This document shows positions 26,182 through 37,198 of a DNA stretch of 59,471 nt, one piece after another. Position 1 is the stretch's first letter. Each line of letters opens with the position of its first letter. Source of the stretch: an uncultured Heliomicrobium sp. (lineage in GTDB: Bacteria; Acidobacteriota; Blastocatellia; RBC074); contig CAZXZU010000002.1 of NCBI GenBank assembly GCA_964645355.1, forward strand, positions 1 through 59,471, in the 5' to 3' direction. Position numbers and translations under genes: made by a program. Below the pieces are notes generated by a model. It was given only the letters and a program-made list of their open reading frames with translations, searched no databases and had not been told where the DNA came from.

Positions 26182-27642
26182 TTACACCAGCACTTCACGG
26201 ATGATTTGACCGTGAACATCGGTCAGACGGAAGTCTCGCCCCTGGAAACGATAAGTCAGTCGCTGATGATCGAAGCCCAGTTGATTCAGCAGCGTCGCGT
26301 GCAAATCGTGAACATGCGTGCCGCCTTCCGTCACGCCAAAGCCCAGTTCGTCCGTTTCGCCATGCAAATAACCGGGCTTGAATCCGCCGCCCGCCACCCA
26401 CAACGTAAACCCTTCGATGTGGTGATCGCGTCCGGTGGTTTCGCGGACTTCACCCATCGGAGTCCGCCCGAATTCTCCGCCCCAAACAACTATCGTGTCT
26501 TCCAGCAAGCCGCGCTGTTTCAGGTCAAGCACAAGCGCGGCGCTGGCCTGGTCAACTTCGCGGCAACGGGCTTCTATGTCTCCGTCAAGATTGTTGCCGC
26601 GTTCGCCGTGATGATCCCAGTCGGTGTGATAAAGCTGCACAAAGCGCACGCCGCGTTCGATCATTCGCCGCGCCAGCAACGCATTCGCCGCAAAGCCCGA
26701 CTCGCCCGGCTTCACGCCATACAACGCCAGCGTGGCGTCAGATTCCTTGCGCAAATCCATCAGATCGGGCGCGCTGGTTTGCATGCGAAAAGCCATTTCG
26801 TAAGCGTTCAACCGCGTCAGGATTTCAGGGTCGCCGGTTTGTTCGTGCCGCGCTTTATTGAGCGCGCCGACCGTGTCGTAAAAATCGCGTTCCTGTTCGC
26901 GTCCGAGTCCTGCGGGGCTTTGCAGGTTCAAAATCGCATCGCCTTGTCCGCGAAACGGCACGCCCTGAAACGAGGTCGGCAAAAAGCCGCTGCTCCACAA
27001 GGTCGAACCGGCACGGGGGCCGCGTCGCCCGCTTTGCAACACGACGAAGCCGGGCAAGTCTTTCGATTCGCTCCCCAATCCATAAGTCACCCACGCGCCG
27101 AACGCCGGACGACCGGGGATTTGAAAGCCCGTGTTCATAAACAGCTTCGCCGGGCCGTGGTTGAACACATCCGTAGACATCCCGCGCAGCCAGCAAACTT
27201 CGTCTACAATCTTGCGATGGTGCGGCAGCAATTCGCTCAGAGTCATTCCGCTTTGCCCGTAACGCGCAAACTGACGCTTCGTGCCCAGCAGCGTTTCATT
27301 GCCTTTCAGAAAGGCGAAGCGCCGGCCTTTCATCAAACTTGGCGGCGGCGGTTGCCCGGTCAATTCACGCAGCTTCGGTTTGTCGGAAAACAATTCCAAT
27401 TGCGAAGGCGCTCCGGCCATAAACAGATAAATCACCCGCTTGGCTTTGGCAGGAAGCGGCGCTTTGCGCGGTGCCATAGGGTTGGTCGGATCAATCTGTG
27501 GGCGCTGTGGTGCGCCTTGTGTTTCGCCAGCCAGCAGACAGTTTAGTGCGATGGAACCCAGTCCGACCGCGCATTGTCCGAAGAAATGACGGCGCGTTGT
27601 ATCGCGCAATTCGTTTGAAAGTAGAGTTTTCATATTTTTCAT
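26182..27642 (-). CDS. DUF1501-family (sulfatase-like) protein with a Tat signal
   Basis: TRRHFFGQCAVGLGSIAL twin-arginine leader. Conserved ...LFMAGAPSQLELFD.KP..., DWDHHG and GGEFGRTP motifs typical of DUF1501. Confidence 0.85.
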   Translation of the reverse strand: MKNMKTLLSNELRDTTRRHFFGQCAVGLGSIALNCLLAGETQGAPQRPQIDPTNPMAPRKAPLPAKAKRVIYLFMAGAPSQLELFSDKPKLRELTGQPPPPSLMKGRRFAFLKGNETLLGTKRQFARYGQSGMTLSELLPHHRKIVDEVCWLRGMSTDVFNHGPAKLFMNTGFQIPGRPAFGAWVTYGLGSESKDLPGFVVLQSGRRGPRAGSTLWSSGFLPTSFQGVPFRGQGDAILNLQSPAGLGREQERDFYDTVGALNKARHEQTGDPEILTRLNAYEMAFRMQTSAPDLMDLRKESDATLALYGVKPGESGFAANALLARRMIERGVRFVQLYHTDWDHHGERGNNLDGDIEARCREVDQASAALVLDLKQRGLLEDTIVVWGGEFGRTPMGEVRETTGRDHHIEGFTLWVAGGGFKPGYLHGETDELGFGVTEGGTHVHDLHATLLNQLGFDHQRLTYRFQGRDFRLTDVHGQIIREVLV

Positions 27643-27671
27643 TGAAAGCGAAATGTGTGGAAACCCGACCA

Positions 27672-28871
27672 CTAACCAACCAGAAGCCGATTCATAATCT
27701 CAGCAAAAGCCGGATTGAAAATGAGTCTTCCTCCGTTATCGCTATTGGTCAAAATAATGAATCCTGATTTTCGGTTCACCGACGCCATGGCAAGCGAGCG
27801 AAACCCTGTTTGCCCTCCTGAATGCAGGATCACCTTTCCGGTTTTCCGCTGCTGTATTGCCCAGCCCAACGCCCAGGTGTCTGCGTCATCAATTTTCTCT
27901 CCCTCGGCGAGCTTTATTTGCGGACGGAGCATTTCCTGATGACTCTTTTTATTCAGCCGAAACGCATCGCTCGCTTTTGGGTCAAGGACTTCGATCAGAA
28001 ATTTTGCGTAATCGGATGGCGTGGTGTGTAACCCTCCCACGGCGGCGTACCTGGCGGCATCCGTTTCGGTCGGCTTCGCTTTGGTCAAAGGTTTCCCCGC
28101 GACATCGTGCGGGCGCGCCGCGTGTTTGGCGAAGCTGTCGTTCCAGACATACCCGCTGGAGTGCATGCCAAACGGCCTCAGCAGATTTCGCCTCAGATAC
28201 GAATCAATATCTGTCGCGCAAACCTCCAGGTCAGCCTCGTATTTAGAACAGTGCTTGCGGTTTTCCCGCCCCGCTAAATGGCTTATCACCGATTGCAAAT
28301 AACAATAACCCTCGCCCGAATAGAGAAATTTTTCGCCGGGCGTGAAATGGATTTTCAAAGGTTCACGTCCCGAACGAAAGTCTTGAAAGCCTGATGTATG
28401 TGAAAGCACGTGACGGGCAGAGATGAGTTTCAGCCGAGCATCGCCTTCCAGAAATGGCTTCGGCGCGTATTTGGTCAGCGGCGTATCAAGGCCGATGACA
28501 CCCTTTTCACACAGCTTCAGCGCGGCATAAGCAAATACCGTCTTGCTGACCGAAGCCGCTTCAAACACGGTGTCTTTATCAACGGGTGCTTGCGTCACGC
28601 TGTCTTTCACGCCAAAGCCCCGACGCCAAAACAATTTCGCATCTTTGATAACAGCGATGGAGGCTCCCGGAACGATGAATTCTTCCATAAGTTTTGGAAC
28701 CAGCTTCTCCAAATCAGCAATCAGGGTTTCCTCGAAATTGTCCTGTCTCAATTCGGGAAGCCGGCGATTCCTTTGTTCAGGGAACAACGAAAATCCCAAA
28801 GCCGCTTGGCCGCCCATCACTAAAAATTCTCTTCGTAGCTGCTTATTGTAGCGAGACATAAATGTTTTCAT
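27672..28871 (-). CDS. serine hydrolase, beta-lactamase/transpeptidase-like family
   Basis: S-x-x-K motif AASVSKTVFAYA. Tat-like leader RREFLVMGGQAALG. Its ATG overlaps the lactonase stop (ATGA at 28868-28871). Confidence 0.8.
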   Translation of the reverse strand: MKTFMSRYNKQLRREFLVMGGQAALGFSLFPEQRNRRLPELRQDNFEETLIADLEKLVPKLMEEFIVPGASIAVIKDAKLFWRRGFGVKDSVTQAPVDKDTVFEAASVSKTVFAYAALKLCEKGVIGLDTPLTKYAPKPFLEGDARLKLISARHVLSHTSGFQDFRSGREPLKIHFTPGEKFLYSGEGYCYLQSVISHLAGRENRKHCSKYEADLEVCATDIDSYLRRNLLRPFGMHSSGYVWNDSFAKHAARPHDVAGKPLTKAKPTETDAARYAAVGGLHTTPSDYAKFLIEVLDPKASDAFRLNKKSHQEMLRPQIKLAEGEKIDDADTWALGWAIQQRKTGKVILHSGGQTGFRSLAMASVNRKSGFIILTNSDNGGRLIFNPAFAEIMNRLLVG

Positions 28872-29986
28872 TTTGCCGGAAGGTCTACGATCTCAACCCA
28901 GTTGGGAATCCTGCCCAGCGCATATTCCTTGAGCTTGGTCAGCTTTCCAGTACCGGAAACAATCTGGTAACCGGACATCCGATGAGAGCGCATCCCGACT
29001 AAAAACAGATACCGCCCCGAAGAATCAATGCTGAAGCTGCGCGGCATCGTTTCGGTCGGGATGGTTTCGATCAGCATCAAGGTGCCATCCGTTGCATTGA
29101 CCTTGAACCCCGACAGCGTGTTCGTCGTGCGGTCTGAAGCGTAAAGAAACTTGCCGTCAGGCGTGATGTGCAAATCAGCGGCGGCAATCCGGCCCGTCGT
29201 GCCAGGCGGCAAGGCGCTGACGGACTGTTTCTCTTTGAGCTGCCCTTTAGCCGCATCGTAATCAAAAACATGCACCGCCGCATCCAGTTCGCCGAGCAGA
29301 TAAACCAGCTTGCCCTTTGGATGAAAGACCAGGTGGCGCGGGCCTGTTTTAGCTTTTACCGAAACCGATGGCGGCGTATTCGGCTCAAGCTTTCCGGTCT
29401 TCGCATCGAACTTCAGCACGTTGACCAAATCATTGCCCAGCGTCGCCGCCAACACGTACCGGTTTTTCGCATCCGCCAGAATCGAATGCGCGTTGGTCTG
29501 GTTTTCTAAAACCTGCTGCGTCGGCCCGATTACGCCGTTTGCTCCGATGGGGCTGACGGTGAATTTGTGACCTTGATACGAAGCCGCAAACAGAAAGCGG
29601 CCTGTATGGTCAGTCGAAATGTAAGGCATGCTGTCAACCAACGGCCCGCTGCCGATCAGTTTCAGCTTGCCGCTTTTTGGATCAATCGCGAAAGTGAAGA
29701 CGCTCTGCGGTTCGCCCCGCGTCGCCACAAACAGAAAGCGGCGATCCGGGCTGACCGTCATCGGCGTTGAACCGCCGGATTTGACGACGCCGGGAATCGC
29801 AACCTTCTCGACCAGCGTCAACTCGCCCGTCTGCCGATTCAGGTGCAAGACGTAAATGTCATTGCTTTCAGAGTTCCCGACATAAACGATTGTGGCCGCC
29901 TGCACAGGCGAAACCATCGCAGCGCCTGCAACGGTCGCCGCGGCGGAAAGCGCAATCCACAACGCCTGATGAAATAATCCTCGCAT
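28868..29986 (-). CDS. 7-bladed beta-propeller lactonase (6-phosphogluconolactonase-like)
   Basis: Signal peptide. Repeated V-x-(S/H)PDG(K/R)FL(Y/F)(V/A) blades (VSPDRRFLFVA, FHPKGKLVYLL, ITPDGKFLYAS, IDSSGRYLFLV). ATG 29986 overlaps the msrB TGA (TGATG). Confidence 0.8.
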   Translation of the reverse strand: MRGLFHQALWIALSAAATVAGAAMVSPVQAATIVYVGNSESNDIYVLHLNRQTGELTLVEKVAIPGVVKSGGSTPMTVSPDRRFLFVATRGEPQSVFTFAIDPKSGKLKLIGSGPLVDSMPYISTDHTGRFLFAASYQGHKFTVSPIGANGVIGPTQQVLENQTNAHSILADAKNRYVLAATLGNDLVNVLKFDAKTGKLEPNTPPSVSVKAKTGPRHLVFHPKGKLVYLLGELDAAVHVFDYDAAKGQLKEKQSVSALPPGTTGRIAAADLHITPDGKFLYASDRTTNTLSGFKVNATDGTLMLIETIPTETMPRSFSIDSSGRYLFLVGMRSHRMSGYQIVSGTGKLTKLKEYALGRIPNWVEIVDLPAK

Positions 29987-30444
29987 CAACTCACCTCTCC
30001 TTTGATCTTTTTCAGAGCTACAGCATTCATACAGTAACGCAATCCACTGGGTTCAGGCCCATCGGGGAACACGTGCCCCAGATGCGCGTCGCAAGTGTTG
30101 CAAACCGTTTCAACCCTGGACATTCCGTAATTGGTGTCTTCGTGATAGGCAATCGCGTTTTCCTTAACTGGCTGCGTAAACGAAGGCCAGCCCGTTCCGC
30201 TTTCAAACTTTTCACTGGCATCGAACAACAACGTGTCGCAGCAAACACAGCCGTACAACCCCGGCTCGAACAAACTGCACATTTCCGAACTGAAAGGGCT
30301 TTCCGTTCCGTGCTGGCGCGTCACAAAGTATTGCTCCGGCGTCAATTGCGCCTGCCATTCCGCATCAGTTTTGGTAATTTTTTGGTCGGGAGGCAGGTTT
30401 GAAATCCTGGCCAATCGAAGCACATCTAACCATTTCAGCAACAT
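29986..30444 (-). CDS. msrB: peptide-methionine (R)-S-oxide reductase
   Basis: Two CxxC zinc pairs (CVCC / CNTC), GTGWPSF, and the catalytic RYCMN motif. ATG 30444 overlaps the upstream stop (TGATG). Confidence 0.9.
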   Translation of the reverse strand: MLLKWLDVLRLARISNLPPDQKITKTDAEWQAQLTPEQYFVTRQHGTESPFSSEMCSLFEPGLYGCVCCDTLLFDASEKFESGTGWPSFTQPVKENAIAYHEDTNYGMSRVETVCNTCDAHLGHVFPDGPEPSGLRYCMNAVALKKIKGEVS

Positions 30445-30776
30445 CAGTCTCTTCTCCTTTTTTCGGTTTTCAAATTGAACTTTTGCAACAGCCAATCCAA
30501 GACGGCCTCTTGATCCTGTATCGTCGCTCGTCGGATTTGCGCCAGCAGATGAATTCGATCAGGTTTTGGTAGCACAGTATTTTGCAATCCTTCCTCGCAT
30601 TCGTCGCACATAATCCAAAAACGTGTGACGTCACCGGGCCGCGGGCATAGCCGAAGCAGTACTTGCCTCGTCGGTGTCGTTTCCCAAAAATCACTGATGA
30701 TGGCTCCACACATAGAACACACCTTGTTTTCAACTTCTCGATCAGCCAACGTAGATAATGCCAATGTTTGACGCAT
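30444..30776 (-). CDS. hypothetical 110-aa protein with a CxxC...CxxC zinc-ribbon-like pair
   Basis: CSMCG ... CDEC. Translationally coupled to msrB. No family recognised. Confidence 0.45.
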   Translation of the reverse strand: MRQTLALSTLADREVENKVCSMCGAIISDFWETTPTRQVLLRLCPRPGDVTRFWIMCDECEEGLQNTVLPKPDRIHLLAQIRRATIQDQEAVLDWLLQKFNLKTEKRRRD

Positions 30777-30790
30777 ACAGCCTCTTTCTT

Positions 30791-31445
30791 CGTCGCGTAG
30801 CGACGGTTTGAATTTAGCCGTGGGTTTTCAACCCACGGCAGCGATGTGATTGTCCCCGCGTCGCGTAGCGACGCTTGAATCAGCTTGCTCAACCCCACAA
30901 ATACCGTTCGTCGTATTCCACGCCCGCCTTGTCCAAAAACCCTCGGTACTCGTCTTCAAAGGCTTGCGATTGATGATGCACTCGTTGGTTTTGAATGTAT
31001 CGAATCACGCTTGGCACATTGGCTTTGCTGACGGTGAATGCGCCGTATCCGTCCTGCCAACCGAAATCCTGCAATTCGGGAAACTCATCGTGAATCCAAC
31101 TCGACGAATCGCCTTTCAGGTATTTCGCCATATCGCATGGCGCAATCGTCGTCGGAGCCAGCACCAGCGCATGTAAATGGTCTTCGATACCACCGATTTG
31201 CAAGGCCGTCATTTTGTGATGCCGCGCAACACCACCGACGTATTCCCAAATGCGGTTTTCCAACTCCGGCTTGATGAACGGCGCTCGGTTCTTCGTACTG
31301 AAAACGATGTGATAGAAAAGCGAGTTGTAGGTGTTGGCCATAATTCGTATCTCCATTCAAGCGTCGGCTACGCGACGCGGGGGATGCGTTAACGCTTTCC
31401 GTGGGTTGAAAACCCACGGCTAAAGTCAGCCGCCGCTCTGCGGCG
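30791..31445 (-). mobile_element. REP-RAYT unit: an IS200-like tyrosine transposase flanked by inverted REP hairpin clusters
   Basis: Left flank: CGTCGCgtaGCGACG-GTTTGAATTT-AGCCGTGGGTTTTCAACCCACGGC ... GCGTCGCgtaGCGACGC-TTGAAT. The right flank (31355-31445) carries the reverse complements: ATTCAA-GCGTCGgctaCGCGACGC ... CCGTGGGTTGAAAACCCACGG. Confidence 0.8.
30889..31341 (-). CDS. IS200/IS605-family Y1 transposase-like protein (REP-associated tyrosine transposase type)
   Basis: YNSLFYHIVFSTKNR, the HLHALV HUH region and YIQNQRVHH. About 150 aa. Flanked by REPs rather than IS ends. Confidence 0.85.
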   Translation of the reverse strand: MANTYNSLFYHIVFSTKNRAPFIKPELENRIWEYVGGVARHHKMTALQIGGIEDHLHALVLAPTTIAPCDMAKYLKGDSSSWIHDEFPELQDFGWQDGYGAFTVSKANVPSVIRYIQNQRVHHQSQAFEDEYRGFLDKAGVEYDERYLWG

Positions 31446-31683
31446 AAGAGGGTGTTCATCATTTCCCTTGAATCCGTCTATTCAAATGCAAGCGCGCCAT
31501 CCGCAAACAACGGAGCAAGGCGGGAAAGGTTGCCCGCCAACAGCCCAGCGTCAATTTCTTGAAACACCGTCTCATTCTTCTTCAGCCAATACCCATTCCG
31601 CCAAGAAGTTTTCAAAGCAGTTTGTTCAGATAAGCTCATAGGAAATTTGCCACTAAATACAACTTAACAAGGCGAGAATCCGG

Positions 31684-33141
31684 TTACGCCTTTGAAGCAG
31701 ACGGTTTATTGTCTTTACGTGCATCTATCAAATATATGTCTTTACGGCCTAGGATTTTTAGCTTTTTTAGTATTCTTTCTACTTTAAGCAATTCTGGCTT
31801 TGAAAAATAAATAATAACTTTGAAAGAGGCGTCTGTATTATTCGCTTTCTCATAAATCGCCACCTGGTTTTGCAAGTTGCGTTCAAGTTGGGTGTTCTTT
31901 GCTAGTTTGAATTCAACTAACGTTTTGTCTCTTTTGCCTTTTGAAATTTTGAAATCTACGGGGCCACGGCCATTATTAACCTCTCTGTTTACATCTGACG
32001 AAGATGCGAACCATGTTAAGCGATAAAGAATTTGAAGGTCTTCCTCTCTTTCAATAGCCTTACCTTTCAAATAGAAGATTCTATAGCCATCTTTGTTCTC
32101 AATAACATCTTTGAGAAACTCTATTCTTTGTTGTGTTTCATCGCGGCTCGTACCTGAGTTTTTGTAGAAATCAGTTTGCTCTGCTAGTTGATGAACAAGA
32201 TGCTTGAATTGGTCAATGTATAACTGTTGAGAATTTGCTACTTTTTGAGAGCTAAGATTTGTGGCTTGTTCGCCATTTTCTTCTTTGTACTTAATGTAAT
32301 AGTCAACAAGTTGTGGAAACTGCTGAAGGGTTCTAAAAGCGGCATCCTTTTGATCTTTTGCAGTCGGGGTCTTACCAAGAAAACTACGGAAGTAGTTATT
32401 AACTTGCGCTCGCAATTGGCTGTCAGGAATGGCACTGGGGATAAGATTGAACTGGTCAATTAAATCAGTTTTGTTGATCCAAGTATCATCCTTGGTCAAA
32501 ATGTCTTTTGGAGTCAGGATGACGTAGTCATTACCTATGCATGGCAATTCATATACTCCACCTTCCCACGTTTCAGTGCTATAACTGAAACGAACACGGC
32601 TAATGTGCAGCAATTTTCGCAACTCAGTCTTAATGTGTTTTCTGGCAAATTCTTGCGTATATTCAAGAAGGAATTCTTTAATTAAGTTAGTGGTAAAATC
32701 ACTTATCATATCCTTCCCAACACCTTCTCTTATCAAGCACAGCTTTTCCAAATGGCTTCCTTTCGTTATCCGTTCATTGCCAAAATTGCTGAAGATTTGA
32801 TTTAGGTTTTCATGTAGCGCAAAAGCAAATTTAGGGCCCAACCCGCTTCCTCTGTTACCTGCAAACGTAAACCCCAGCCAGTTCTGCTTTACTTCTGGAA
32901 ATGCATACCATGCTTTTATCAACCCATTATCTAATGAACTGTTTACGGACTTATCCCTCAAAAATATCAGGTACTTAATTATTGAGTCGTGCAATTTTTG
33001 ATATTTCTTCTTTTTGCTATTGAAAAGCAAAAAAGGATCTATAAAAAGAGGCAGGTCATTGACTAGCGAAACATTGAACGCACCGTGTTTTTCCAAGTCT
33101 TTATGACTGATTTCAAAATGCTCTGAGAAGTAAACGTTCAT
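31684..33141 (-). CDS. AT-rich 485-aa hypothetical protein with a C-terminal PD-(D/E)xK nuclease-like motif
   Basis: Sampled lines are 32-37% GC against about 58% in the flanks. GAGAGG RBS. C-terminus ...REEDLQILYRLTW...GRGPVDFKIS(x9)LVEFKLAKN matches a D...(D/E)xK core. The N-terminal 330 aa are unassigned. Confidence 0.75.
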   Translation of the reverse strand: MNVYFSEHFEISHKDLEKHGAFNVSLVNDLPLFIDPFLLFNSKKKKYQKLHDSIIKYLIFLRDKSVNSSLDNGLIKAWYAFPEVKQNWLGFTFAGNRGSGLGPKFAFALHENLNQIFSNFGNERITKGSHLEKLCLIREGVGKDMISDFTTNLIKEFLLEYTQEFARKHIKTELRKLLHISRVRFSYSTETWEGGVYELPCIGNDYVILTPKDILTKDDTWINKTDLIDQFNLIPSAIPDSQLRAQVNNYFRSFLGKTPTAKDQKDAAFRTLQQFPQLVDYYIKYKEENGEQATNLSSQKVANSQQLYIDQFKHLVHQLAEQTDFYKNSGTSRDETQQRIEFLKDVIENKDGYRIFYLKGKAIEREEDLQILYRLTWFASSSDVNREVNNGRGPVDFKISKGKRDKTLVEFKLAKNTQLERNLQNQVAIYEKANNTDASFKVIIYFSKPELLKVERILKKLKILGRKDIYLIDARKDNKPSASKA

Positions 33142-33171
33142 CTATTGAACCTCTCTTTTCTTAATTGAGAA

Positions 33172-36100
33172 TTACTCCCGCGTAATGAAATTGTCCGTGT
33201 TGAACAGCACTCGTGCCGCAGCCGTCAGAGCGGCGGATTGCGCTTCGGTCAATCCAGCCTTCGTCAATTCCTTGTTCACCAACGCCGCAGCCGTTGCAGG
33301 TTGGCTGGCAAAGCCCTGTGCTTGCCGTTCGACGTAATTACGCAAATCAGCGAGTTCCGTCGCGCTGGGCGGGCGGCTGAAACACAGCGCAAATGCATGC
33401 TTCAAACGCGCGTCCAGCACAACCGCAAATTCACCCGGCACTTCGCGCACCAGCCGTGCCGCCAAGCCTTGAGCGATTTCCAGAAAAGCCGGGTCGTTCG
33501 CCAGCGTCAACGATTGCAGTGGCGTATTTGATCGGAAGCGTCGAGTGCAAACCTGTTGAAAATCCGGCGAGTCAAACGTCGTGAACAACGGATAAGGCGC
33601 GCTGCGGTAAAAGTGCGTATACAACGCGCGGCGAAAGCGTTCGTTGCCTGCCGCTGTCGTCCAGTTCTTTCGGTTCTGCGTGAAAGCATAGACGCCGTCG
33701 GGTTGTGGCGGACGCACGCTGGGACCGCCAATCTTCGGGTTCAGCAAACCGCTGGCGCTCAGGGCGGCGTCACGCACAATTTCGGCTTCGACGCGAAAGC
33801 GTTCCTGGCGTGAGAGCAACAGATTGCGGGGATCAATTGATTGCGGATTGGGGGTTGCGGATTGCGGAGTGAATTCGGAAGACTGGCGATAGGTTGCGCT
33901 GGTCACGATCAGGCGGTGCATAGCTTTCAGGCTCCAGCCTTGCCGAATGAACTCGCCGGACAACCAATCCAGCAATTCGGGATTTGTCGGCGGCGTGCCT
34001 TGCGTGCCGAAATCCTCTTCGGTTTCGACGATGCCGCGCCCGAAATACCGCATCCAGATGCGATTCATTGTAACGCGCGGCGTCAGCGGGTTTGCCGGAT
34101 TGACCAGCCACTCGGCGAGATCAAGGCGCGTGCGCGGTTTGCCGGTTTCGGGCGGCTTTTCAGGTAATTGGGGAGCAATCGCGCTGATGACGCCCGGTTG
34201 CAACATGCCCGCCGCTTTGTCTGGTCGCGTGAAATCGCCGCGCGTGAAAATGTATGACTCGCGCGGCAAGTTGGTGTCGCGCATGACCATCGCCATTACG
34301 GCATTGCCTGATTGCTTTTCTCTGACCGCGCGCGCCGAAGCGAAGGCCGCATTAACCATCGTTTGCTGTTCGGGCGAGCGCGCATTGAGCGGAAGTTTCA
34401 AGGCTGCGAGCAACGCCGCTCCGCGCGCATCGTGCGGAGTTTCGGTGGCGATTTCGATTTTGAAATGACCGATGCCACGCCCGGCGTCGGCTTCGTGTCG
34501 CATCACGAATTGAATTTGGCGGCTGGCAAATGTTTTCGGCTGGGTATAAACGAAGACAGCTTCGTGCGACTGGTTTCCGCTCAACGACCAACCTGTGCGC
34601 CGGTCGCCATCACTGGCAGAACGCGCCGGATACGCGCGTTGTTCGTTGTCTGCAAAAGCGTCGTTAAAACCATGCCGCCCGCCTTCGCTGTCAATGTAAA
34701 ACTCGCTCAAGGCAAACGAACCGTCCGCCGCCAGGCCCGGCCCGTTTTTTGGCAAACCTTCGTGCGGCAGCACACGCAAACGCACGGCGGCAACACGCGG
34801 CGAAGCGATCCTGACCAGAATGCGGTAAGCGTCATTCACTGAAGCATTCGAGGTAATCAAAAACGAACCGTCTGCCAGTCGCTGCAATTTGCCAGCGGCT
34901 TCGGTGTCGAATTTGACGGGATCAAACGAAACCCATTCGACTTCTTTTTTCGTAGCCGTCACCGCCGGATTGCGTTCCAGCCGCGCGATTTCCAGGCGTT
35001 CCCAATCGCCCTGCTTTAACTCGCCAATTGGCATCTGCCTGCCTCTGGCGACAGCGGGTTCCGCATTCGTTTCCGGTTTGCCGAACATCTCGCCTCGCTG
35101 GACAGGAACGACAGGGCCTTGATTGTTCACGTCAAGTGTCGAGTTAAAAAACGCGAGCATCCGGTAATACTCTTTGTGCGTGATGGGATCGAACTTGTGC
35201 GTGTGGCATTGCGCGCAGCCTATGGTCAAACCCAGCCAGACTGCGCCTGTGGTGCTGACGCGATCCATGACCTGTTCGACACGAGCTTGCTCCGGATCAA
35301 CGCCGCCTTCTTCGTTGATGACTGTGTTGCGGTGAAAGCCTGTGGCGACGAGTTGTGATTTGGCCTTTAGCGGGTCTGAAGCATTCGGCAACAGGTCGCC
35401 CGCCATTTGTTCGATGGTGAATCGGTCAAACGGCTTATCTTCGTTGAGCGCCTGAATCACCCAATCGCGGTAAGGCCACATCACTCGCTCGCCGTCAATC
35501 GTGTAACCGTTGGAATCGGCATAGCGCGCCTGATCCAGCCAATGCCTTCCCCAACGTTCGCCATAATGCGGGCTGGCAAGCAGCCGTTCGACCAATGCGG
35601 AATACGCTGCGTCCTGCTGGCGCGGAGTTGTTTTCTCAAATGCCTTAACGAACGCTTCGACTTCCGCAGGTGATGGCAACAAGCCCGTCAGATCGAGCGA
35701 CACGCGACGAATCAACGTGCGCGCATCGGCCTGCGGCGAAGGCAATAACCCAACGCTTTCCAGCCGAGCCAGAATGAAATTATCAATCCCATTGCGAACC
35801 CATTTGGCATTTTTGACGACTGGCGGCTGAAGTTTGGCCAACGGCTGGAACGCCCAATGCCCTTCGTACTTTGCGCCCTGAGCAATCCAGCGGCGGAGCA
35901 ACTCAGCTTCTGCCGCCGTCACCGCGGGCTTTTTGGCCGAAGCTGGCGGCATCATCACGCCTGCTTCGTGCGAAGTGACACGTTTGAGCAATTCACTTTC
36001 GTCCGGCTTACCCGGCGTGATCGCGCGATAGCCGCCGCGATCTTTCGTCGCGCCTTCAAAAGTATCCAGGCGCAATCCCGCCTTGCGATTCTTTTCATCC

Positions 36101-36261
36101 GGCCCGTGGCAATAGAAACAACGGTCGGAAAAAATCGGGCGAATGTCGCGGTTGAATTGCACGTCTTGCGCCGCTTTTACAACGGGGGTTGGCGCATTCC
36201 AGGTTAAGCAAATTGCTGAAACGACCAGCAACAGACTCACACAGAGTTTCAATGGTTTCAT
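33172..36261 (-). CDS. DUF1549/DUF1553 protein with an N-terminal haem c motif (PSCyt/PSD type)
   Basis: Signal peptide MKPLKLCVSLLLVV. DRCFYCHGPDEKNRKAGLRLD. The central and C-terminal regions are typical of DUF1549/DUF1553. The track ORF is extended to 36384. Confidence 0.85.
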   Translation of the reverse strand: MKPLKLCVSLLLVVSAICLTWNAPTPVVKAAQDVQFNRDIRPIFSDRCFYCHGPDEKNRKAGLRLDTFEGATKDRGGYRAITPGKPDESELLKRVTSHEAGVMMPPASAKKPAVTAAEAELLRRWIAQGAKYEGHWAFQPLAKLQPPVVKNAKWVRNGIDNFILARLESVGLLPSPQADARTLIRRVSLDLTGLLPSPAEVEAFVKAFEKTTPRQQDAAYSALVERLLASPHYGERWGRHWLDQARYADSNGYTIDGERVMWPYRDWVIQALNEDKPFDRFTIEQMAGDLLPNASDPLKAKSQLVATGFHRNTVINEEGGVDPEQARVEQVMDRVSTTGAVWLGLTIGCAQCHTHKFDPITHKEYYRMLAFFNSTLDVNNQGPVVPVQRGEMFGKPETNAEPAVARGRQMPIGELKQGDWERLEIARLERNPAVTATKKEVEWVSFDPVKFDTEAAGKLQRLADGSFLITSNASVNDAYRILVRIASPRVAAVRLRVLPHEGLPKNGPGLAADGSFALSEFYIDSEGGRHGFNDAFADNEQRAYPARSASDGDRRTGWSLSGNQSHEAVFVYTQPKTFASRQIQFVMRHEADAGRGIGHFKIEIATETPHDARGAALLAALKLPLNARSPEQQTMVNAAFASARAVREKQSGNAVMAMVMRDTNLPRESYIFTRGDFTRPDKAAGMLQPGVISAIAPQLPEKPPETGKPRTRLDLAEWLVNPANPLTPRVTMNRIWMRYFGRGIVETEEDFGTQGTPPTNPELLDWLSGEFIRQGWSLKAMHRLIVTSATYRQSSEFTPQSATPNPQSIDPRNLLLSRQERFRVEAEIVRDAALSASGLLNPKIGGPSVRPPQPDGVYAFTQNRKNWTTAAGNERFRRALYTHFYRSAPYPLFTTFDSPDFQQVCTRRFRSNTPLQSLTLANDPAFLEIAQGLAARLVREVPGEFAVVLDARLKHAFALCFSRPPSATELADLRNYVERQAQGFASQPATAAALVNKELTKAGLTEAQSAALTAAARVLFNTDNFITRE
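33840..33867. repeat. heptanucleotide tandem repeat ATTGCGG x4 (imperfect) inside the DUF1553 CDS
   Basis: attgcgg attgggg gttgcgg attgcgg. This is the reverse complement of the 5757-5784 unit. Encodes ...PQSATPNPQSI.... Confidence 0.85.
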
Positions 36262-36361
36262 AACAGGCTCGCGGTAATGGGTTTCAACGATGATTGTCAG
36301 GCGCGGAGTAAGAACAACAACTTCAATGCGAAGCCGGTGTAGTTCAACAGCGTTTAAGAAG

Positions 36362-37198
36362 TCAAGCAGTTGAAATCGCCGCATTGCGAAATGCGCGTGG
36401 TGTCATGCCAGTGGCTTCGCGGAAGACTTTGGTGAAATGGCTCTGGCTGGCGTAACCGACCGTCGCGCCGACTTCGACGATTGCCAGGTCGCTTTCGGCC
36501 AGCAATCGCCGGGCGCGTTCGATTCGCAAACCGCCGAGGTAAGCGTGCGGCGTCAAGCCGGTAATCTTTTTGAACAGCCGAGCAAAGTGAAACTCGCTCA
36601 GGTAAGCCGCCGCTGCAATTTCAGCCAAAGTGAGTTCGCGTCCGCAGTTGTCGTGCATGAATTCGACGGCTTTGCGCAGACGGCGATCAACCAGTCCAAC
36701 GCGCGACAATTCGATTTCGTCCGAACGTTGCACGTTGATGTGTTCTCGCAACAAATAAACCGCCAGTTGATTAACCAGCGAACGAATGACTTCTCGCCAG
36801 CCAGCCGCGCCGGTTCCCAGTTCAGCCGAAATTGATTCCAGCGTCTGGCGCAGTTTTACGTCTTCCGTCACCGGTTCCATCGGCGAACGAAACAGCAGAT
36901 GTGAACCGGCGCGATAAAGGCGCAATCGCGTAGCCGTTTCGATCAGCAACTCCGGTTTCAAGCGAACCAACAACAATTCGTTTTTTCGACGATCAAGGGT
37001 TAGCTGAGCAGCCAAATTTGGATTGGCAAAGAAGCTTGGGTTGGCCGGTGAACTTGCGCCGGATTTCAAATTTGAGATTTGAGATTTTGGAAAGTGCAGC
37101 AGCAAAAAGTCCGGTTGGGCGGGCAATTCAAAATTGCTGCGCGAAGTGGTGCGATGTTCGACGGAAAAGTTTGGTTCAACCAGAAGGCGCGAGTTCAT
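36362..37198 (-). CDS. AraC-family transcriptional regulator
   Basis: C-terminal double HTH LTLAEIAAAAYLSEFHFARLFKKITGLTPHAYL...VGYASQSHFTKVFREATGMTPRAFR. The track N-terminus (to 37246) runs into a palindromic repeat. Confidence 0.85.
   Translation of the reverse strand: MNSRLLVEPNFSVEHRTTSRSNFELPAQPDFLLLHFPKSQISNLKSGASSPANPSFFANPNLAAQLTLDRRKNELLLVRLKPELLIETATRLRLYRAGSHLLFRSPMEPVTEDVKLRQTLESISAELGTGAAGWREVIRSLVNQLAVYLLREHINVQRSDEIELSRVGLVDRRLRKAVEFMHDNCGRELTLAEIAAAAYLSEFHFARLFKKITGLTPHAYLGGLRIERARRLLAESDLAIVEVGATVGYASQSHFTKVFREATGMTPRAFRNAAISTA

Follow-up and report, generated by a model that had tools for sequence, protein, structure and literature searches.

Shedu (SduA) and the Mrr-type Type IV restriction enzymes are encoded by single genes, frequent in defence islands, in which an N-terminal regulatory or recognition region precedes a C-terminal nuclease of the PD-(D/E)xK superfamily. 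The type III CRISPR proteins Can2, Card1 and Cdn1 likewise join a ligand-sensing N-terminal domain to a C-terminal PD-(D/E)xK nuclease. In Avs (AVAST) and other NLR-like systems, one polypeptide carries a constant sensing or switch module together with interchangeable effectors drawn from a pool that includes PD-(D/E)xK nucleases, TIR, SIR2 and proteases. The PDC candidates are unvalidated predictions made by guilt-by-embedding; one of them, PDC-M36, is a three-gene cassette (FAM_01399>>FAM_00303>>FAM_00303) embedded in restriction-modification (R-M), BREX and DISARM loci (Payne et al., bioRxiv 10.1101/2024.01.29.577857). Here we analyze a 485-amino-acid (aa) open reading frame (ORF) at 31684-33141 on the minus strand of contig CAZXZU010000002.1, which comes from an uncultured bacterium deposited as Heliomicrobium sp. 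(assembly GCA_964645355.1; Acidobacteriota, Blastocatellia in GTDB); by “the window” we mean all 59,471 nucleotides (nt) of this stretch. We consider it probable that this is a recently acquired, self-contained immune gene of a large, horizontally mobile and uncharacterised family, the defence function itself being what we infer. On this reading it would be a defence gene of the single-protein sensor-effector type, and it is not categorically new.

Of these systems, PDC-M36 is the one that the gene resembles in sequence. PADLOC returned a match to PDC-M36A (E=3.5e-21, 73.6 bits) that extends over residues 6-339 of the protein and, in the 457-position profile, over positions 9-334 only, and the match is similarly weak for all subfamilies tested (1e-14 to 1e-21). 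PDC-M36A shares the N-terminal core of our protein, the DUF8370 domain, and both occur beside R-M genes (type I R-M for several homologues of the window gene). However, the window gene is a lone insertion with no conserved partner, whereas PDC-M36 comprises three genes. We therefore rejected membership in PDC-M36, as the match is weak, partial and exclusive of the nuclease domain, and there is no three-gene cassette; the profile similarity instead places PDC-M36A as a distant sister family. The likeness to Avs lies in the plan of a constant module with exchangeable effectors. The window protein differs in having its effector at the C-terminus, in a 350-aa constant module of no recognised fold, and in a sequence conservation far above that of typical protein-sensing NLRs. 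No STAND or other P-loop NTPase and no TPR sensor was found by Pfam, NCBIfam or PADLOC in the query or in 97 family members, and no Walker A motif is apparent in the consensus. Can2, Card1 and Cdn1 are among the top folds retrieved from the PDB, but these matches are non-significant (E 0.07-0.17, TM-score 0.15-0.18) and driven by the nuclease half; no CARF fold was found and no Pfam match to CARF or SAVED domains, and neither a conserved cyclase neighbour nor a CRISPR locus was seen. As for Shedu and Mrr, whose single-gene layout is the same, an Mrr-domain protein appears among the BFVD matches to the window model (prob 0.98), but PADLOC and Pfam give no match to DUF4263/Shedu or Mrr_cat, and the N-terminal domain is unrelated to the described reader domains.

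A sequence-only reading of the window had described the gene as a strongly AT-rich orphan ORF with a good ribosome-binding site, and had taken its composition as the mark of a horizontally acquired single-gene cassette. The ORF is complete with an ATG start (31684-33141, stop codon included, minus strand), as the ORF listing, the recorded Pfam families and full-length homologues agree, and a Shine-Dalgarno-like GAGAGG, read from the sequence, stands 8 nt 5' of the ATG at 33150-33155 (minus strand). The stop codon of the upstream PSCyt1/DUF1549/DUF1553 gene (33172-33174) is 30 nt away. The gene has a GC content of 0.375, against 0.553 ± 0.025 (z = -7.1) in 550 other 1458-nt windows of the same sequence, the lowest of which reaches 0.486; its GC3 is 0.38, compared with 0.56-0.67 in the neighbouring genes. 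The compositional anomaly is therefore real and unique within the window. Its upstream edge is abrupt and coincides with the DUF1553 stop, while the downstream edge fades at ~31560-31600, slightly past the position of 31640 that the sequence-only reading gave.

The insertion itself can be seen by comparing empty and filled sites. We collected 34 metagenomic loci (L108-L141) with orthologues of the upstream DUF1553 gene, the closest of them 78-86% identical, and the 485-aa gene is present in none. DNA homology between the window and five relatives ends at 33171-33173, that is, at the DUF1553 stop codon, and homology to L121 restarts 1.63 kb further on, at 31539, in what is left of the N-terminal part of a 178-aa gene. 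The gene was thus acquired horizontally as a cassette of ~1.63 kb (31540-33171) that carries exactly one gene, the ORF being preceded by a 30-nt leader and followed by another ~145 nt, so that what had been proposed from composition is now shown directly. The remnant (31489-31539, minus strand) aligns to L121 with 80% identity over 51 nt in blastn and with 60% identity over 25 aa in tblastn (E=6e-6). Terminal inverted or direct repeats, a sigma-70 promoter and an intrinsic terminator were not found above chance in the flanks of the cassette. In L121, the 178-aa gene is intact and lies directly 3' of DUF1553. The window keeps about its first 25 codons, which border the insertion on the downstream side; the remainder seems to have been lost by deletion at the place now occupied by a REP/RAYT element.

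The protein is no orphan. Homology searches returned 7,151 significant clusters at 90% identity, of which the best 120 are all full-length, 60-72% identical and equipped with both DUFs, and an exhaustive profile search recovered 3,149 family clusters at 50% identity. An identical protein from a Hainich groundwater metagenome (L092) is recorded with PF28123 (DUF8370, N-terminal) and PF28130 (DUF8371, C-terminal), matches by which the 485-aa protein is assigned to the DUF8370+DUF8371 family. A Pfam scan of the protein found nothing, because the library version predates both entries; NCBIfam and PDB sequence searches of the protein were also empty, as was an hmmsearch of a 97-sequence profile against PDB sequences. 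None of these searches assigned the protein to a housekeeping family, which left PDC-M36A as the sole named match.

Among species-representative genomes there were 264 confirmed matches, of which we retained 80 loci (54-69% identity, more than 12 phyla). These include Clostridia, Bacillaceae, Paenibacillus, Acidobacteriota, Nitrospirota and Chloroflexota; Bradyrhizobium, Methylobacterium, Halomonas, Bdellovibrionales, Desulfobacterales and Myxococcales; and Verrucomicrobia, Planctomycetes (Brocadiaceae, Phycisphaerales, Sedimentisphaerales), Bacteroidota, Chlorobium, Cyanobacteria and lineages of the candidate phyla radiation (CPR). The homologues are lower in GC than their flanks (mean 0.43 vs 0.52), by more than 5 points in 57 of the 80 genomes. 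Such a wide spread at 54-69% identity, together with GC below that of the flanks, indicates frequent recent transfer combined with strong purifying selection. The gene is also carried on 17 PLSDB plasmids. In PHROGs, the protein has a full-length match to PHROG 30194, a family of unknown function; since there are 0 matches in 50,697 phage genomes and 10 among 2.9 M IMG/VR contigs, this entry probably reflects prophage-borne copies.

The C-terminal DUF8371 domain (residues 351-485; 31684-32091, minus strand) is a predicted PD-(D/E)xK nuclease-fold effector. The AlphaFold2 (AF2) model was built from an alignment of 97 sequences reaching down to 29% identity and has a pLDDT of 87.6 and a pTM of 0.84; an earlier model from 42 close homologues (pLDDT 69.6) was too poor to use, and its fold search returned noise. 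The modelled domain consists of helix 366-375, strands 383-389, 394-400 and 406-413, helix 419-433, strand 439-445, helix 448-460 and strand 469-473, which form the canonical alpha-beta-beta-beta-alpha-beta core with E366 on helix alpha1, D396 at the start of beta2 and E410-x-K412 on beta3. Each of these four residues is conserved in at least 90% of the 97 aligned sequences, and the codons of the catalytic-type residues D396 ... E410-F-K412 (PVD ... EFK) lie at 31906-31956 on the minus strand. The E...D...ExK arrangement that had been picked out from the sequence in the C-terminal 100 aa is thus present, as E366, D396 and E410-F-K412, and is invariant or nearly so across homologues.

Fold and profile searches agree with this assignment, in that the matches obtained are weak and those to described enzymes are to PD-(D/E)xK nucleases. 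The top-ranked PDB folds are almost exclusively such nucleases: Can2, Cdn1, SfsA (prob 0.89), EndoMS/NucS (0.77), Card1, ACE1, PaqCI and MUS81. Against BFVD the best E-value was 7e-4; the prob values were 0.94-0.98 for proteins annotated as PD-(D/E)xK, Mrr or restriction endonucleases and reached 1.00 among unnamed ones. The only nuclease families to recur in a permissive Pfam scan of the 97 members were PDDEXK_9, in 13 (best E 2e-4), and the DpnII-MboI restriction endonuclease, in 8 (7e-4); other recurrent weak matches were DUF7049 (6 members, best E=0.013), Thioredox_PDIA6_C (4) and RHH_7 (3). By modelled fold and motif, membership of the DUF8371 domain in the PD-(D/E)xK superfamily is well supported, and we predict it to be a nuclease.

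The N-terminal DUF8370 domain (~residues 1-350; 32092-33141, minus strand), which we propose to be a sensor or switch, consists mainly of helices in the AF2 model, and residues 175-202 form a long beta-hairpin. No fold or family matched it in the PDB, BFVD or the Pfam version searched, and the weak PDC-M36A match covers residues 6-339. Its conservation is striking: of the 88 representatives with a length of 420 aa or more, a set that we also used for the architecture counts below, 86 retain the acidic pentad D29, D35, E83, D144 and D148. H51, H130, E132, K133 and N152 likewise vary little or not at all in the alignment that reaches 29% identity, and conservation extends to a Gly-rich loop at residues 95-102 (G-N-x-G-x-G-x-G), which is flexible in the model.

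In relatives, the same N-terminal module is combined with effectors other than the nuclease, which independently supports the sensor-plus-effector idea of the sequence-only reading, as does the loss of the nuclease triad in the presence of such an effector. Fused after the shared module we found TIR_2 (P0158, P0165, P0181, P0207, P0213), TIR/SEFIR (P0145), SIR2_2 (P0138), CHAT (P0126, P0169) and Peptidase_C14 (P0136, P0140), with Effector-Associated Domain 7 (EAD7) also present in P0136. The D/E/K triad is intact in 47 of the 88 representatives and lost in 41. When an extension is defined as more than 140 aa at the C-terminus, the triad is lost in 16/17 extended proteins versus 25/71 unextended ones (Fisher p = 1.3e-5). 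In the alignment, triad-less extended proteins have the D396 hairpin deleted and E410 usually replaced, and keep only the structural “FKLASN” strand. Variants of ~450 aa have the same degenerate C-terminal domain and no extension, and in at least two cases an ORF follows in tight coupling; by analogy with the multi-gene candidate PDC-M36, this combination would fit effectors supplied in trans. We also considered transmembrane-helix effectors in the short C-termini of these variants and rejected them, as the regions are degenerate nuclease-fold domains.

The extreme C-terminus follows the triad closely. In the window protein the tail is K-D-N-K-P-S-A-S-K-A (residues 476-485; 31687-31716, minus strand), which is invariant in close homologues, and the motif [KR]-x-[ST]-[AGW]-[ST] (here KPSAS) is conserved down to ~30% identity. 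It occurs in 44/47 triad-intact and 0/41 triad-degenerate representatives, a contrast whose p-value is inflated by the non-independence of lineages. Given this clear pattern of co-occurrence, we predict that the tail is functionally part of the active nuclease, where it might plug the site as an auto-inhibitor, contact DNA or metal, or serve as a degron or modification site.

Caspases also appear as separate genes next to the family. In L001:8001-12859 (and in L002 and L003), a DUF900 gene and then a Peptidase_C14 (caspase) gene come after the homologue, all in one orientation, and a HepT/NTase pair lies close by in L001. Read together with the caspase fusions, these neighbours give a hint, of the Rosetta-stone type, of a functional link between this module and caspase-like proteases.

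The genomic surroundings of the family repeatedly include defence and mobile genes and lack any fixed companion. All-against-all clustering of flanking ORFs in 81 loci revealed no conserved partner gene or operon; the commonest neighbour clusters occur in 9 loci each and vary in position and strand. Recurrent neighbours are a tyrosine integrase (9 loci), HsdM (9 loci), HsdR (5 + 4 loci), N6_N4 DNA methyltransferases (4 + 3 loci), an SNF2 helicase (4 loci) and a ResIII/TnsA-like protein (3 loci). The 149 immediate neighbours most often carry ResIII, Methylase_S, Phage_integrase, DEAD and HTH_3 (3-4 members each), followed by the SLFN-g3 helicase, HsdR domains, Fic, PLDc_2 and M78 (two each) and by DpnII, McrBC and SLATT_4 (once each); housekeeping enzymes are found among them as well.

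Individual loci illustrate the association with defence and mobile DNA that the sequence-only reading had proposed as a check and that the homologues display. In L093, a homologue 72% identical to the window protein follows a coupling protein/relaxase and precedes SIR2+Piwi (short prokaryotic Argonaute), an integrase and HsdR/M. The order in L104 is TrwB (a coupling protein), the gene, HNH, a methyltransferase with RE_EcoO109I (type II R-M), PycTM, a second methyltransferase and a Phd antitoxin, and L105 places the gene between a reverse transcriptase+HTH and an SMC-like ATPase. On pSmeSM11a the gene sits between a Tn3 transposon and ISRm5, near AbiEii, and a variant with DUF8370 only (L088) comes after a relaxase, an NgoPII R-M system and Fic. 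A separate observation concerns three metagenome-assembled genomes of Acidobacteriaceae (L009/L010/L011), in which a 3-kb unit combines the gene with a 281-aa ORF that lies 401 nt downstream and belongs to no known family; one genome contains this unit twice at 94% identity, near contig ends, which suggests that this lineage has a repeated two-gene mobile unit.

The way in which such a protein would work can be outlined as follows. The constant DUF8370 domain with its invariant acidic cluster would act as the sensor or switch. Its invariant or almost invariant residues, with the Gly-rich loop, argue for a metal-assisted pocket that would probably recognise an invariant infection cue; a feature of nucleic acid and a ligand resembling a nucleotide are candidates. 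Because DUF8370 is so extremely conserved across phyla, we favour such a conserved cue over an arms-race interface with a fast-evolving phage protein. Activation would then pass from DUF8370 to the C-terminal domain and license the PD-(D/E)xK site (D396, E410, K412 and the K-x-S-A-S tail) to cut DNA. Cutting would stop the replication of a phage or plasmid, either as direct restriction or as abortive infection at the possible cost of the host cell, and TIR, SIR2, CHAT or caspase domains would take over the effector role where the nuclease site has decayed. As to the more specific proposal that DUF8370 is a novel-fold sensor or enzymatic domain of a widespread single-protein immune family with interchangeable effectors, and that the window gene is its nuclease archetype, freshly inserted in a lineage-specific defence hotspot, we see the chances as about even.

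Several observations pull away from an immune role or from parts of this scheme. The gene is surrounded in the window by housekeeping genes and no defence island, and L004 and the TIR-fusion locus L107 are, like the window, solo insertions amid housekeeping genes. Enrichment of defence neighbours, such as type I R-M systems near ~9-12 of the 81 loci, is a qualitative statement with no matched random control behind it; among randomly chosen genes, far fewer than ~11-15% have a type I R-M locus within 6 kb. None of the PDB folds retrieved by Foldseek reached significance (best E=0.07). The triad is also missing from the 25 of 71 unextended relatives counted above, and the nuclease-fold domain can therefore serve a non-catalytic role. 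In appearance, the invariant acidic residues of DUF8370 are closer to the active site of an enzyme than to a passive sensor. Absence from phage genomes and rarity in IMG/VR neither support nor exclude defence, and we found no paper on DUF8370, DUF8371 or PDC-M36 and no experiments on any family member.

Some of these points lead to other explanations, of which a stand-alone Type IV-like restriction endonuclease is unlikely on balance but deserves attention. Here DUF8370 would be a DNA-recognition domain for modified bases or for unusual structures or ends in DNA, and the enzyme would cut foreign DNA while the host survives. A solitary nuclease with no cognate methyltransferase or partner gene, often beside type I or type II R-M, McrBC or DpnII genes, recalls the immigration-control region of E. 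coli, and the extreme conservation of the N-terminal domain fits the recognition of an invariant chemical feature. However, none of the known modified-DNA reader folds (SRA, YTH, winged helix) was detected, and relatives exchange the nuclease for TIR, SIR2, CHAT or caspase, which are NADase or protease effectors typical of abortive or signalling systems rather than of restriction. It is rather improbable that DUF8370 is instead the catalytic core, a metal-dependent enzyme acting on nucleic acid or nucleotides, with the PD-(D/E)xK-fold domain mainly a scaffold for DNA binding or oligomerisation, which would reverse the roles of sensor and effector proposed above. The near-universal pentad, kept in 86/88 while 41/88 dispense with the C-terminal triad, would be expected of such an enzyme, as would the other (nearly) invariant residues (H51, H130, E132, K133, N152) and the conserved Gly-rich loop. 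Yet triad and tail are retained together in 44 of the 47 triad-intact proteins and the triad is lost specifically when another effector is appended, which argues that the nuclease is catalytic where intact; in addition, no enzyme fold is recognised for the N-terminal domain.

The traffic of the gene on mobile DNA raises the question of whether it serves the mobile element, as an addiction or exclusion nuclease of plasmids and integrative and conjugative elements (ICEs) or as a homing or transposition nuclease. Its presence on conjugative plasmids and in ICE-like regions, beside Tn3, IS256, integrases and relaxases, would suit this role, as would very wide horizontal spread with high conservation and low GC, and the duplicated 3-kb unit. 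We nevertheless give it only a slight chance: inverted or direct repeats do not flank the cassette, we saw no partner resembling an antitoxin, and fusions to TIR, SIR2 and caspase are foreign to transposases and homing enzymes. Insertion sites and flanks differ among all loci, so there is no homing target. A housekeeping repair or recombination nuclease of the RecB/Cas4 kind, merely odd in base composition, is the least probable of all. In its favour, close homologues have Q426-x-x-x-Y430 after the ExK strand, a motif resembling that of RecB-family nucleases, although it is invariant only in the close subfamily and falls below 90% in the wider 97-sequence alignment. The fold match to the Cas4-like ACE1 is weak (E=0.5), no conserved cysteines of the Cas4 type (4-Cys Fe-S) were seen in the alignments, and the protein has no Pfam, NCBIfam or PDB match. 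The family is patchy across phyla, with GC under that of the host in most genomes, and the gene is missing from all 34 orthologous loci of the closest relatives; this pattern of presence and absence essentially excludes a housekeeping role. A horizontally acquired immune gene remains the reading that we prefer.

The slot that received the cassette is itself variable. A 496-aa gene, presumably the usual DUF1501 partner of DUF1553 proteins, directly follows DUF1553 in 17 of the 34 loci (as in L119/L120); its copy in the window lies at 26182-27672, and in the window lineage the two genes are separated by a variable hotspot that starts at the DUF1553 stop (region 26182-36384). In L109 and L114, MsrB follows within 7-63 nt, which represents the empty site; the slot is empty in L119 as well. 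Elsewhere the slot holds a DNA modification methylase (L116; E=3.5e-26 to PDB 2zie), a methyltransferase-like protein with a second gene (L115) or a low-GC lipoprotein-like ORF (L111), and related loci contain MsrB/lactonase or an AAA-like ATPase with an IS30-like gene. Two further cargo proteins had no matches in the PDB. A small-gene pair recurs directly 3' of the DUF1553 stop in four loci (L108:6885-7654, L110:1350-2056, L113:6941-7638, L117:4326-5065). Its first gene encodes 103-124 aa and its second 128-132 aa with “VDSGFNG”, reminiscent of retropepsin-like aspartyl proteases; the pair may be a toxin-antitoxin-like or defence module.

The gene had also been described as wedged next to a RAYT. 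This is true locally, as a Y1_Tnp gene (IS200/RAYT-like) lies at 30889-31356, but incidental for the family: any Y1_Tnp gene lies nearby in only 3/81 contexts, and the genes concerned (among them those beside L001 and L018) are unrelated to that of the window. The perfect 21-nt palindrome CCGTGGGTTTTCAACCCACGG occurs in two inverted copies at 30818-30838 and 31399-31419, where none is expected by chance, and these bracket the transposase gene and not the cassette. We therefore rejected a linkage between the family and RAYTs. Similar hairpin sequences, without the transposase gene, are found at the equivalent place in L121 and L111, which suggests that the REP/RAYT-type element reached the locus independently of the cassette.

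Further downstream on the minus strand, a 110-aa Cys-rich ORF (CxxC ... CxxC; 30444-30776) overlaps the annotated MsrB start region and has no Pfam match. It is probably a real small gene, since L116 has an orthologue (55% identity) at the equivalent position.

These results bear on both the locus and the family. A clean empty-versus-filled hotspot behind the stop codon of a conserved gene offers a useful setting in which to examine the exchange of single defence genes in uncultivated Planctomycete-like lineages. With its size, its orphan fold, its alternating effectors and a tail that co-varies with the triad, the family is a concrete and testable lead, though not one that would shock a specialist; the alternation between nuclease and TIR, SIR2 or protease, together with the tail, offers ready-made comparative constructs for dissecting activation. 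If the defence role is true, the family would add a broadly distributed and unstudied immune module, with over 7,000 clusters at the 90% identity level (3,149 at 50%), present in Firmicutes, Proteobacteria, Acidobacteria, Chloroflexi, CPR, Planctomycetes, Cyanobacteria and others. The sensing domain, without a recognisable fold and unusually conserved, would then imply that these bacteria respond to a conserved infection cue rather than to a target of the arms race.

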